Source: Eledone cirrhosa (Eukaryota). Taken from it: a stretch of 64,000 nt of DNA. Shown here piece after piece: positions 1,109 through 34,675 of the stretch; position 1 is the stretch's first letter, and every line of letters starts with the position of its first letter. Location: positions 48,484,001 through 48,548,000 of the forward strand of contig OZ024749.1 of assembly GCA_964016885.1 (NCBI GenBank), read 5' to 3'. The notes below the pieces were generated by a model. It ran no database searches. It was not told the origin of the DNA and worked only from the letters and a program-made list of their open reading frames with translations. Both the position numbers and the translations under genes were made by a program.

Positions 1109-1264
1109 AATCATCAGGGTTCCTGAAGATTTCCTCCGAATGAAAGAGTTCTAGTCCTGTAGAAGCCTTTCTATATTAAATATTTATATTCTGCTTTGTA
1201 TTGAGTACTTTACTTACTCTGGTTAACCCCCCCCCCCCCCGATTGAACACGAGATAAACTTGCA
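1109..1264 (+). mobile_element. Family A copy with a degenerate hammerhead
   Basis: GGTTC-CTGAAGA(1123-1129)-TTTC CTCC GAAT-GAAAG-AGTTCTAGTCCT-GTA-GAAGCC plus the same tail. A short inverted stub AATCATCAGG lies at 1109-1118. (TA)n on both sides. Confidence 0.75.
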
Positions 1265-1309
1265 TATATATATATGTATATATATACACACACACATATA
1301 TATATATAT

Positions 1310-1505
1310 ATATAGATGAGATTCTACAGGACTAGAACTCTTTCATTCTTTAGAAATCATGAGGAATCTGATTCCTGATGATTTCTAAAGAATGAAACAG
1401 TTCTAGTCCTGTAGAATCTCATCTATATTAAAACTTTTATACTCTGCTATGTATTGAGTACCTTACTTACTGTGGTTACTTCCGATTCAACCCAGAATAA
1501 CGTAC
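1310..1505 (+). mobile_element. Short non-autonomous fold-back element (family A, PLE pLTR/retrozyme-like) between (TA)n tracts
   Basis: Palindrome 1310-1428 centred on 1369 (59-bp arms, 2 mismatches), followed by a tail TACTCTGCTATGTATTGAGTACCTTACT also seen at 1189-1216 and 34651-34675. Confidence 0.8.
1370..1418 (+). ncRNA. Apparently intact type I hammerhead ribozyme (family A), predicted cleavage after GUA at 1413
   Basis: GATTC-CTGATGA-TTTC TAAA GAAT-GAAACAG-TTCTAGTC-CTGTA-GAATC. Stem I GATTC/GAATC, stem II TTC/GAA, stem III ACAG/CTGT with a CTAG-containing loop; the core is complete. Confidence 0.8.
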
Positions 1506-2977
1506 ATATATATATATATATATATATATATATATATATATATATATATATATATATATATATATATATATATATATATATATATATATATATATATATA
1601 TATATTATATATATATTATATATATATATATATATTATATATATATATATATATATTTATATATACATATATAGAGATAGAGATAGATAGATAGATAGAT
1701 AGATAGATAGATAGATAGCGAGATAGAGAGATGAGGAGAGAGAAGAGAGAGAGAGAGAGAGAGAGAGAGAGAGAGAGATGATAAGAGAGGAGGAGGTAAA
1801 TGAGAGAGGAGATGGAAAGGTACCGAAAGAGTGAGATATATCTAGAGAGAGAGAAAGAGAGAAAGAGAAAGGAAAGGGGTGAGAAGAAAGGGTTGACATG
1901 TTTTCTAAGAATCTTAGTGTATGTAGAAACGCTAAAGTCAAGAATGCGTATGAAGTTTAACTTAAATCTATACGAGAACAAGATCAGATTTAGAAAAAGA
2001 AATTCAGCAAGAACCAGAGAGGCAAGAATATTTCCACAATATGTTTGTTGAAATTACATACAAGTACAGACATTTTGCTGCGAATGGAGAGTAGTATTAT
2101 CACCCAGTGCATATTTTATCGACGTTTGGCGTATAAAAAACATATAAACAGTGATATAATTTGAACGTAGAATTTAATACCACAAATCATTCTATCCTGC
2201 GTTTTACCGTTCCTGGCGAACACCAGCCTTGTACTTAAGTAATAATTGAAATAGACAGTTGCATATATAAAACGACCGTTCGGTTTACCAGAAATACTTG
2301 GTTCAAATATTTCTTTCTTGCACTTGCAGCGTACAGCTTTAAATCCACGTACATTCACACACACAAGCATCCACATATACACACACATAATGTACCTCTG
2401 CTTCTTCGTGCAAAATTCATTCAATACATGAATTAGCTAAGAACTTAAACAGAAATATGCAAATTGACACACCCTAGTTGTGGTTACTATCAGATTTGAT
2501 GGGTTCATAAAGCATTTAGTTACATTGATGGTGATTGGGAAAACATGAAGATATTTGTGATTCCAACATAAACTGACACCCGGGAGAGGTTAAATACTGT
2601 TTCCATTCTACGTTTAAATACTTAAATAAAATATGTTTATCTTAAGGAGTGTATTGGTTTAAACACATATAGCGTGCATATTCGGTAAATGATATACAGT
2701 AACTTTACTGATATGAAATAATAGTGTATTTCAGCTGCTTTATGCACGATTTAACATTTATACTCATATATACCTGTATATATATATGTGTATATATTTG
2801 TGCAAATGTGTATGCAGATATGTCCATATGTCCATATTTATGTAAATATCCTGGACAAAAATTAAAAAAATATATATATATATATATATGGTAAAGGGAA
2901 ACGAAAGCAAGAAATTAAAATCCTGTCACTAGATATAAGTTGAAGTAAAATGCATCTTCGCCAATAGGGAGACAGAT

Positions 2978-3197
2978 AATGATGATGATGATAATGATGA
3001 TGATGATGATAATGACGACGACGACGATGATGGTGATGATGGTGATGGTGATGACGACGATGATAATGATGATGATGGTGATGTTGATGATGATGATGAT
3101 GATGACGATGGTGACGATGATAATGATGATGATATTGAATGTGATGATCGTGATGAAGATTATGATTATGACGATGATGACGATGATGACGATGACG
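2978..3197. repeat. Imperfect (ATG)n microsatellite
   Basis: Direct reading; it explains the poly-His and poly-Met ORFs. Confidence 0.95.
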
Positions 3198-30871: not shown

Positions 30872-31010
30872 CATGATAAGGCACAATGCCTACAGTTATT
30901 GTAAGAGATGTGATATAGCCAATTAAATCAACTACAATATAGTATTGGTAAGTATTTTATCGACCCTTTGAGGATGGGAACTAAATCGATTTTGTTGCAG
31001 AGTCGATCCT
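30872..31010 (-). mobile_element. SINE, old fragment
   Basis: Plus strand AAGGCACAATGCC...TGGTAAGTATTTTATCGACCCTTTGAGGATG is the reverse complement of the tail and central domain. Confidence 0.55.
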
Positions 31011-34000
31011 GAAGTAAATAAATGTCTAAAACTATTTCACGAAACAAAACACCAGAAGTATTCCTATTGGCCATCAACATTTCTCGTATAAAACAACACA
31101 CTTTCCTTTTTGTTTATTGAAATATTTGTGTAGCGAAAGTCACAACATGGAACATATATTATGATATACGACGATATATGTCACGTAGGATATATTTACT
31201 TGCACAAAAGAATAGAAAGTTATAACCGTTAACGTGTGAGTGTCTATGTGATCACTCAAACAACATAGAATAGCAAACGGCCATTCTTCACAGCTTCATA
31301 AAAAAATGTATGCTGTCGTGGCTGCTATGAATTTGGTCCTAGTTCTCTTGACCAGGGCAATACAAAAAAATAAGAATAAAATTCAAACCAATATATCTAA
31401 TATGGTAAAGGACAACGAGAAATCCTTAATGAAAAACATATATGTAAATATCTGTTTAATCAGTTTCTCTTTTACCTTTTTCGATTCTAGTTACTCTCCT
31501 CAAAACATATTGAACAAGAGCCTTCTTTAAAACCTTCCCAAGACGATCGAAATGGCCATCATCATTCGAGATATTATCAATTAAGAAGATGCAAATAGTA
31601 TTGCTTTTTTAAAATATATTGATATCCAAGTTATCAGAGAAGAAGCTAATAAAACTTCCATCATATATATTTATAGATTATTATACAAACAACTTACATC
31701 ATGTTCTATGGAGCTAGCATTTAATTCCATGCAACTGCTACCTAAATTTGATCTGGATTGTAAAACATCTTATCATTGTGCTATAACTGGCCACTACATG
31801 AACATCTCACAACTAATACCTACTTAGTCCCTGAATGTAATAGATCATAGCAGGATTAATGACATCCCGTAGTGTATGAATCTGTCGAACGAAACCATAC
31901 ATGCTAGAATATTTTGGTACTTAAGATTTGTTAATTATCTCTGCAAGGCTAAAAGTGCAACATCTAGTGCACGACTCGAATATAAGCTACCATTCAGATA
32001 TAAACTAAACCTATTCATTTGATTGAAAATCTATCCATTATGGGCAGCCTCACGGGTTAATAAATGAGGAATATTATATGTGCGTATTTATCTCTAACAC
32101 ATCGTAGTCAAGGCACCATACTATCAAACATTACTGCATGAAAACACAACTCTATAAACGGTAGGTATGTAAGACAAGTTATTCAAAGAAAATTTGTCAG
32201 GAAAACGTAAATATGCTAAGTAAGAAATGGAAGGATTTTGCTCATAGGTCTGATATTATAGGGTCGGCGAGAAGATAAGAAACGATGGCACACATGGATA
32301 TGTTACTAACCAAATTTACTGTCCTCTCTTCTGCATTTATCCTACAATGTCTGTCCTAATGATGTAGCAGTTTGCTAACTTCATATATTTGGACTGTCCA
32401 AATCCTGTCTCTATCACTGTCCAAAATCCTTTCCAATGCATGCCTCTATATTTAACTACTCTGTGGTTATATCTACGCTGCATCCTGTTTTCATATATAT
32501 GGATATACTGACAAAAAAGCATGAGAATAATACATATCGATCGAAACGAAATAGAAGGGCGACTAAGTTCATTTACCTTCGTTGCTTTTTTCTCATTTGA
32601 TTGGTCAATATAAGAAAGGTAATATATGATTATTACATTTTATTCTATTAAGGAATATATATTTTAAAAACAATAAATTCTAAGCATACAATGTATAGAA
32701 GTAGTATGTATGTATTTATTTATATTATTTATTGTATATGTATATATATATATATCCATACATACATACATATATATATATATATATATTTATACTTAAT
32801 GCTTAAGCTCGCTCTCATACCTATTTTTCTTTTCCACCTAACTATCACCTGCTCACCGTTGCCACCATAATTCTGTATCAATATTTCTCTACTTCTTACA
32901 TATCTATTCACTCATATTTCCTTTCTCTCATTCATTGTCTTGATAGATAATAGATAATATGTACATTCATATATATTTATATATATATATATAAATATGT
33001 ATATATATATATATATATATATATATATATATATATATATATATATATATATATATATATATATATATATATATATATATATATATTTATATATATACAT
33101 ACATATATATATGCATATATATATGCATATATACATATTATATATGCATATATACATATATATGATATATATATGTATATACATATATATGCATATATAC
33201 ATATTATATATGCATATATATATTTAATATCATTGTTGTATATTTCCATGTTAATGTAGAAGTATGAATGTAAAATGTGTGCTTGTTTATTTTCCATTTC
33301 CTCCTGCTATAGAAAAAATAATGCTGTCTCTAAGAGACATCAATTTACATTACTTTTTCTTCTTGTTCTTCTTGTTTACTTCGGAAAGTTTTCTTTTTTT
33401 ATTCTCTATCTGTAAATGTATGAAGAAGTCTCTGAAAATTTCGTGGAAATGTGTCAAATAATCTGTAATTTGACTACAAAGCATTGAAAGGAAGAATTGT
33501 AGGAGGAGAGATATCGTATGTATGCATGCCTTTGTATGCACAAACATACACATATACATACATTCATCGTATATATATATATATATATATATATATATAT
33601 ATATATATATACACATGTGTGTGTGTAGTTGAGATTCAACAAATACATATATATATATATATATATATATATATATATATATATATATATATATATATAT
33701 ATATATATATATATATATATATATATATATGCATTTATATGTACGTCTGTGGGTGTGAATTGTATGTGGTGTGTGTAAGTAACATATCACTAACTGTTTT
33801 AAAGAAATATGAATGTAAGTGCTAATATCAAGATACAATATTGTTGCTTTCCGAAATCTTTTCTTCAAAGAAGAAAACAATAATGTTATCGCCTTCTAGA
33901 GTCTTATTTAATAAACTCTTGAATAAAATATGAGTTGTGTTCTGTTTTTATTCTTTTTGATCTAGTTGATAAAAGAGAATAACCAAAACTGAAATATTCT

Positions 34001-34546
34001 GTGATTATATTTTTCTTCTGGTACTGATAGATTAACATTTTTGGTATTTCTTAGTTACTATTAAATTAGAGCTTGTATACATTCATAGTTGTGTAATTTA
34101 TCTTATAGAAGCTGAAACAGCAATTTGCTATGGAATTTATAGTTTAGGTGATGACACAGAGGACTAAAAGATAAATATAAATGCGTAAATGTTAATTATC
34201 AATCTGTCCTAAAGATCTTTGTCACAGAATCATCAAATAAAACGTTATAGTTTTTTCTAGCTACAAAAATAAGAAATGGAAAATAGATAAATAAATAAAC
34301 ATTAATTTTCTTCATGTCGAAGACGATGTACTATATTTTCAACTATATGATGATGTAAGAATATAATGTAGGTGCTGCATAAATTCTAAACGACCAACTG
34401 TTCAATGCACAATGTTTTAGATAACTTCTACAATATTAATTTACTTGCAATATATATATTAATTCGCACGCTGCCGTCTTATAACATGTGTGACTCCATT
34501 TCTAATATATGACTCAACAAATGTAATGCATAATATATATATATTT

Positions 34547-34675
34547 AATATAGAAATGGTTTCTACAGTACTAGAACTGTTTCATTCGATGTTTTCCTTC
34601 TAATGAAATATTTCTACTCCAGTAGAAGCCATTTTTATATTTAATATTTATACTCTGCTTGTATTGAGTACCTTA
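34547..34675 (+). mobile_element. Family A fold-back copy, older, inverted within stem II
   Basis: AATATAGAAATGGTTTCTACAGTACTAGAACTGTTTCATT ... AATGAAATATTTCTACTCCAGTAGAAGCCATTTTTATATT, then the tail TACTCTGCTTGTATTGAGTACCTTA. Confidence 0.7.

Follow-up and report, generated by a model that had tools for sequence, protein, structure and literature searches.

Short hammerhead-bearing hairpins of Eledone cirrhosa as terminal-repeat copies of Penelope-like elements, probably formed by twin priming on a capped leader

Introduction

The question raised by a 64,000-nt stretch of the Eledone cirrhosa genome (OZ024749.1, positions 48,484,001-48,548,000, hereafter the window; source genome 3.0 Gb) is how its many short fold-back elements, which fall into four families named A to D and carry hammerhead ribozymes or remnants of them, have come into being. 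A first-pass annotation of the window had put forward two outcomes, namely that these elements form a distinct non-autonomous class, or that they are randomly truncated ends of Penelope-like elements (PLEs). Neither outcome holds in families A and C, as the truncation point is fixed and the hairpins are not a distinct family, the fixed point being re-made with each insertion. The reading favoured here, to which a probability of about 0.65 is assigned, is that two complementary DNAs (cDNAs), both primed near the 5' end of a capped PLE transcript and both run off at the cap, were joined head to head.

Hairpins of the window and their abundance

The elements reported by the first-pass annotation were all found at or near the positions given, and window alignment bore out the distinctness of the four families; several copies (A at 1109, 13085 and 34547, C at 5971) proved to be stubs or fragments. 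The plan ascribed to them, an inverted arm, a hammerhead or part of one, a tail and a (TA)n tract, stands in the four complete hairpins (A 1310-1504, C 16730-16936, D 18319-18535 and B-like 10656-10966) and does not extend to the weaker copies; the remainder consists of a truncated PLE (6129-8470) and of stubs and fragments:

1110..1262, plus strand: family A sister copy whose inverted arm is a mere stub of 9 nt; the hammerhead core (at 1123), the tail and a TA repeat are present; positions 1120-1225 match the family A reference copy at 84%
1310..1370, minus strand: family A tail-less inverted arm, its end at the inferred +1 (junction parsing and alignment)
1370..1504, plus strand: family A tailed arm with a complete type I hammerhead, core at 1375, predicted cut after 1413, tail running to (TA)n
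5988..6029, plus strand: family C fragment of 42 bp, stem III region only (sequence alignment)
6129..6730, minus strand: family B 3' untranslated region (UTR) and terminal repeat with a long-stem-II hammerhead, tail running to (TA)n
7167..7875, minus strand: family B broken GIY-YIG frame, linker and endonuclease (EN), with internal stops (six-frame translation; tblastn on locus L091)
8047..8470, plus strand: family B inverted tail-less arm (repeat finder and alignment)
10656..10966, minus strand: hairpin related to B, which it matches at about 75%; the tailed arm occupies 10656-10893 and the tail-less one 10902-10966; only the 3' (GAAA/stem III) half of the ribozyme
13075..13131, minus strand: decayed lone tail-less family A arm, core at 13128; the arm near 13085 matches the family A reference copy at 77%
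16730..16789, minus strand: family C tail-less inverted arm, stopping at the preferred second site
16799..16936, plus strand: family C tailed arm, beginning within the stem II loop; 3' (GAAA/stem III) hammerhead half only; tail running to (TA)n
18319..18462, minus strand: family D tailed arm with a minimal hammerhead, core at 18450
18463..18535, plus strand: family D tail-less inverted arm
34544..34678, plus strand: decayed family A hairpin, core not intact, tail shortened

The tails of A and C have in common the motif TATTGAGTAC (window 1199-1210, 1450-1461, 13226-13237 and 16880-16891), which recurs in the family A 3' UTR (L123) and is a candidate protein-binding site.

Exact 23-mers from the window families gave 23,696 matches genome-wide for C and 9,412 for A, and the reversed control gave none, so that the families are not a product of chance. 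A BLAST search of 40 stretches of 10 kb placed at round coordinates yielded 9 insertions of A, 14 of C, 4 of D and 1 of B, from which roughly 2 x 10^5 insertions of A-D may be extrapolated for the whole genome; short hairpins made up 8 of the 14 C and 4 of the 9 A insertions in this sample. Loci (L numbers) were sampled at 30 per family at first, followed by tail-only and pattern samples and 26 longer stretches, and once duplicates had been removed the head-to-head insertions numbered 67 for A, 124 for C and 11 for D, which underlie the hairpin counts below.

Parent elements

Families A-D are almost certainly the terminal repeat (pLTR) and tail of PLEs that encode a reverse transcriptase (RT) and a GIY-YIG endonuclease, show Hydra-type motifs and insert in (TA)n. 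In family C one locus (L379) reads pLTR, tail, a 786-codon open frame and a second pLTR, and two others (L377, L380) are likewise linked to a frame; in family A the linkage is seen in L395 (tail, open reading frame (ORF) in two frames, pLTR), L394 (a 597-codon frame) and L123. Family D has a tail followed by an ORF in L085 and an ORF upstream of the terminus in L082, L084 and L087, and family B has the endonuclease about 1 kb upstream in L098 and many other loci, with an ORF start after the tail in L112. RT and, at the C-terminus, a GIY-YIG domain occur in a single ORF in C (L379) and A (L394), the D and B frames being in pieces. Tandem copies have pLTR, tail and ORF in this order, and the ORF follows the tail directly; the arms of the hairpins therefore correspond to the 5' leader of the transcript of the element itself.

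These observations support the first-pass view that PLE machinery is present and that hammerheads reside in pLTRs, since RT and GIY-YIG frames are continuous with each family, and also its claim that family B is the end of a GIY-YIG PLE: window 6129-8470 is a truncated 2.3-kb PLE with the broken GIY-YIG frame and an inverted arm. That families A, C and D are derived from pLTRs was likewise correct, but they are not separate non-autonomous or retrozyme families, as longer copies run into RT and GIY-YIG frames of their own, and because each is physically continuous with such a frame the proposal that family B mobilises them has to be given up.

With regard to clade, RWR is present in A, C and D and DKT (in place of DKG) in A and C by motif scan, the DK motif of D lying at the frame break; the CxCx5C linker and the CxxC and CxH motifs that flank the end of the EN were found by pattern in A, C and D and by eye in the broken window frame of B. 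The elements also agree with the Hydra clade in being inserted in (TA)n and in having a terminal hammerhead. The motifs used are those listed by Craig et al. (PMC8557442, section 11), and membership of A-D in the Hydra clade is likely, as judged by motifs rather than by an RT tree. Pfam assigned none of the A, C or D frames to a family and found nothing in four Hydra-type frames; the family C frame has 821 homologues at E<=1e-30, with uninformative names. Compared by eye with the supplement of PMC8557442, A-D are apparently unlisted families of a known class.

A Neptune-type PLE frame that lies beside A in L013 and L121 was considered as the partner of A and rejected, being on the opposite strand and having its own terminus. 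This frame (L121:1480-3200, also in L013, with a related frame in L136) has a Pfam GIY-YIG match and a hammerhead-like terminus, and in L121 it makes a head-to-head junction with the pLTR of a family A copy, possibly as a two-RNA chimera or by deletion between neighbours. Other Hydra-type families are nested near A (L383, L386, L126), a C-like terminus is found on a clearly different Hydra-type protein in L378, and the family A 3' UTR spans about 3 kb of mainly mixed microsatellites (L123:5580-8700).

A fixed 5' limit and an extra G

The ends of the hairpins are not random. A tail is present on one arm only in 63 of 67 A, 117 of 124 C and 10 of 11 D hairpins. Among these, 103 of 117 in C and 8 of 10 in D have a tail-less arm that ends at a single base. 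Measured from one particular adenine, the outermost 5' position falls between -5 and +6 in 58 of the 67 A and 109 of the 124 C hairpins, and the limit persists when boundary-selected loci are set aside (40/48 and 69/75, respectively). Upstream of this adenine, long copies of A have TATAAATA at -30 and CCAAT at -83, and long copies of C have an imperfect TATA, TATT(C/T)AAATA, at -31 and CCAAT at -89. The adenine is the first base of stem I in family A and lies inside the stem II loop in family C, so that short C copies are left with half of the ribozyme. A CCATATATGG box, which we take to be CArG-like, also occurs at -64 of the inferred C start in L132 and other long C copies.

An additional G, absent from long copies, precedes many of the arms that begin at this adenine. 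Hand counts of the first 100 matches listed gave 79 G, 12 T and 9 A for family A (1,312 non-C matches in all) and 87 G and 13 A for family C (3,496 purine matches). The G is concentrated at arms that begin at +1, being found in 20/24 (A) and 16/33 (C), versus 17/76 and 19/131 for other starts (P = 1e-7 and 8e-5, with loci picked for that base dropped). Among the 100 C matches listed there were seven head-to-head pairs with a G on both arms, 0-6 nt apart.

The two arms of a hairpin also share rare variants: a minor allele stood on both in 37 of 45 cases for A and 165 of 201 for C, versus fractions of 0.08 and 0.11 in shuffles, which points to one RNA or one source locus. Towards the 5' side either arm may extend beyond the other. 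An assembly artefact was rejected: similarity between the arms is about 96%, a perfect match along the stretch compared was seen in only 24/58 (A) and 29/112 (C), and their ends are fixed. Depth steps at the A and D boundaries in three sequencing runs are suggestive at most, the A step being inflated by the array described below and the three runs being contigs from one sample, possibly the genome source itself, and so not independent. Templates cut by the ribozyme were rejected as well, in that 5' starts do not pile up at the predicted cut (3/232 C arms and 4/139 A arms) and the four A cases all fall on stem I homology.

Origin of the hairpins

A mechanism that would account for these features begins with a TATA/CCAAT promoter in the pLTR that may start a capped sense RNA at the adenine. 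The PLE protein would nick both strands of (TA)n and prime at two UA sites near the 5' end of the RNA, at about +60 and +135; both cDNAs would run to the cap and gain a C, and the two would then be joined head to head by template jump or microhomology. The short product, having no promoter, would be an abortive insertion, dead on arrival, and for a full-length copy to arise a read-through RNA would have to be primed at its downstream repeat. The templates were apparently not cleaved by the ribozyme; in family C the promoter-like box falls in the stem II loop, so that the presumed mRNA would hold only half a hammerhead. Biochemical work on an Anolis PLE in vitro (Frangieh et al., PMC11167929) describes two internal RT start sites that bound the tail, cutting and extension of both strands, and the use of uncleaved RNA as template with no need for ribozyme cleavage, and for LINE-1 and SVA an untemplated G has been interpreted as a copy of the cap (PMC4859970).

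Several points weigh against this reading. We infer the start site, cap and promoter from genomic copies. The tail-less end of family A has three modes (+59, +66 and +72), all AT-rich, and its extra G is partly templatable by stem I homology; in family C about 10 of the 23 G junctions read could derive from the partner arm, C is nearly as common as G at +1 (15/33), the TATA is imperfect and starts are spread over about -4 to +6. An RT can add a C at any run-off end, the unequal arms could stem from later deletion, and the shared variants could stem from fold-back or conversion. Family D conforms poorly, with only 2 of 11 hairpins within the range of starts applied to A and C, 14 of 43 arms starting at -5 to +7 in a boundary-selected sample, a TATA-like motif at -16 and no visible G excess, and no pattern could be read from the 5' ends of family B.

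The main rival keeps the same origin and invokes a single cDNA that is primed at the tail, runs off the 5' end of the RNA, folds back and is copied as far as a UA microhomology at the other end of the target. It accounts for the variants shared by the arms, for the A junctions that fall on stem I homology (L195, L277, L318) and for arm 5' ends that lie 10 nt or less apart in 46/63 (A) and 75/117 (C) hairpins. Simple fold-back of the tailed cDNA is nevertheless disfavoured because the arm without a tail often extends beyond its tailed partner on the 5' side, by at least 10 nt in 14/63 (A) and 23/117 (C); moreover, a G may be present on both arms with 0-2 nt between them, and the fixed end of the tail-less arm looks like an RT start site of its own, comparable to those seen in vitro (PMC11167929). 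This single-cDNA route is accordingly regarded as unlikely, although it is the closest competitor of twin priming.

The remaining alternatives fare worse. Self-priming of an antisense transcript, proposed for the same head-to-head geometry in rotifer Penelope elements, whose pLTRs have bidirectional TATA-like motifs (PMC3846280), would place the palindrome centre at an antisense 3' end, which gives no evident reason for its position 30 nt below a sense TATA/CCAAT arrangement or for a G of the kind expected from a sense cap, and it is judged improbable. Poorer still are the prospects of the view that A, C and D propagate themselves as non-autonomous families of hairpins or retrozymes and are mobilised in trans, which has been largely refuted. 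Their copy number is very high, the short forms are near-uniform, some junction strings recur up to seven times and a true tandem hammerhead array of A exists, yet there are 50 different junction strings among 67 A hairpins and 106 among 124 C hairpins, and four A copies with one identical junction have, by eye, four tail haplotypes, each of which also occurs in long copies (the pairs being L004/L019, L006/L010, L022/L018 and L024/L023). Furthermore, short copies are without the promoter region, short C copies without half of the ribozyme, and the arms are arranged head to head rather than in tandem. Least credible is a 3' splice or trans-splice site at the fixed 5' end, on the model of the Drosophila virilis Penelope intron, which terminates where helix I has its 5' end (PMC4209133): the A and C boundaries do consist of a T-rich run followed by AG, but the AG is retained in short copies and the preceding letters share no exon or leader.

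Hammerhead ribozymes

By motif and stem parsing, A, B and D are predicted to be type I hammerheads, each with a CUGANGA/GAAA core, three stems and an NUH site. Family A has the full type I layout with a GUA site, one form being present in 80 of 152 parsed cores; family D is a minimal hammerhead with a palindromic stem III, all elements of which are found in most of 30 loci; and in family B, read by eye, stem II is long. A, B and D (window 1123, 1375, 8308 and 18450) and the L121 element have U opposite U at the base of this stem, in place of the G-C pair customary in hammerheads. The 56 long C copies comprise 16 with a U3-A8 variant, 39 with a C3.A8 mismatch and one other, in a sample enriched for the mismatch type, and short C copies are without the CUGA half. 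A U3-A8 core variant is known from Schistosoma PLEs (PMC4209133), and a literature search by name for hammerheads with C3U and G8A found no paper. The stems are wholly different between the four families; variation is concentrated in loop II, and a single compensatory change in stem I was seen in one subfamily of A (L188).

The Infernal/Rfam scan that the first-pass annotation had suggested as a check gave no significant hammerhead match: the best hammerhead match to family A (1356-1431), HH9, reached only 11.6 bits (E 9.8), family D had none, and none was among the 150 of 212 matches listed for the whole window. The best Rfam matches to the hairpins were microRNA (miRNA) families, below threshold, and the predicted hammerhead fold is not the minimum free energy structure for A or D.

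A hammerhead array outside the window

Two clues led outside the window, a strand imbalance of the A 23-mer (6,036 versus 3,376) and go-back joints of 77-78 nt. On contig C28, at about 30,496,750-30,873,750, an array of 377 kb consists of 78-bp family A hammerhead units, some 4,800 of them by length, with 1,721 junction matches all on one strand. It was sampled at both ends and in seven interior 2-kb pieces (L417-L424, L433-L435); of 158 parsed units, 130 are 78 bp long and 84 have an intact core and stems. As the array begins at an inverted, tailed family A arm, it likely grew from one head-to-head insertion. About eight of the same units, without tail or TA flanks, occur on contig C1 (350200280-350200900; L397, L438) and are perhaps a dispersed piece of the C28 array.

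The array has the layout of non-LTR (long terminal repeat) retrozymes, head-to-tail units each with a hammerhead, although its 78-bp unit compares with a usual 150-450 bp (PMC7229834). The dispersed A, C and D hairpins are different, being single head-to-head pairs rather than tandem units and having no lineage of their own as retrozymes require, with heterogeneous junctions and haplotypes in common with long copies. Non-LTR retrozymes and pLTRs carry related type I hammerheads (PMC7229834; bioRxiv 10.64898/2026.07.22.740005), and an origin of hammerhead satellites from pLTRs has been proposed from trees alone (bioRxiv 10.64898/2026.07.22.740005), with which the C28 array fits.

Comparison with known systems

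The parent elements resemble the Hydra-clade PLEs, including Hydra-1_Obim of Octopus bimaculoides (PMC8557442), in RW(K/R), DKT, CxCx5C, CxxC/CxH, a C-terminal GIY-YIG, a terminal hammerhead and (TA)n; the hammerhead sequence of Hydra-1_Obim, the sole octopus Hydra family listed in the supplement, differs from A-D when compared by eye. The head-to-head inverted pLTR and one-sided tail are those of a canonical PLE insertion (PMC8557442, PMC3846280), and the opposite-strand dual minimal hammerheads of PMC4209133 are comparable to the head-to-head arms; what sets these hairpins apart is that they contain the leader alone, with a fixed 5' limit, an extra G and a tail of about 65-75 nt rather than the 30-40 nt of canonical PLEs. 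The Anolis Poseidon element PAc (PMC11167929) is alike in having two RT starts that bound the tail and no need for ribozyme cleavage, but it belongs to a different clade and its starts are non-homologous, whereas the putative starts read here from genomic copies lie at UA matching the (TA)n target. LINE-1 (PMC4859970) shares the proposed priming from both target strands and an untemplated G interpreted as a copy of the cap, but its inversions are described as concerning the 5' end of the element, whereas here both arms cover the same leader. The internal promoter of D. virilis Penelope is TATA-less (PMC2377424), unlike the TATA/CCAAT layout seen here.

No published description of PLE hairpins that are limited at a start site and have a G on each arm was found in a search that lay outside most subscription journals, Repbase and Dfam, and a literature search linking Penelope-like elements, twin priming, inverted termini and hammerheads returned no paper. 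Whether the template is sense or antisense, and how head-to-head PLE termini are made, is left open in the available portions of PMC3846280, PMC8557442 and PMC11167929, and the A and C copies yield predictions at the level of single bases on where the RNA starts, where the two cDNAs are primed and where they join. The class itself is known, and the copies show an unusually sharp, testable signature of inverted-terminus formation. The C28 array shows the route from pLTR to hammerhead satellite put forward in the bioRxiv preprint. Dispersed hairpins of the present kind may be misclassified as miniature inverted-repeat transposable elements or miRNA precursors, and Rfam misses their ribozymes.

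A wider claim is offered tentatively, at somewhat less than even odds: the tens of thousands of hairpins may be a fossil record of the PLE cycle, in which a dimeric enzyme would twin-prime one capped sense RNA from two internal sites and join the cDNAs by their ends. This would explain the inverted pLTR of PLEs generally and disfavour antisense self-priming, one hairpin would have seeded the 377-kb satellite, which would be a non-LTR retrozyme array that has stayed in contact with the PLE it came from, and with the C promoter inside the ribozyme only read-through RNA would self-cleave.

Other features of the window

The output of the repeat finder over the whole window was swamped by microsatellites. 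Several copies of a repeat similar to short interspersed elements (SINEs) lie at 4310-4490, 4520-4900, 9720-10090, 11410-11590 and 15030-15170 and resemble octopus SINEs. The region 5620-5990 is the 3' part of an RTE-like long interspersed element (LINE), frames of the same family being seen by eye in L392. A 175-codon open frame on the minus strand at 45354-45881 we take to resemble the zinc-binding C-terminus of a LINE RT protein. Finally, a 242-codon open frame at 62677-63405 on the minus strand is likely a host exon, its middle part presumably resembling the N-terminus of the neuroligin/carboxylesterase family.

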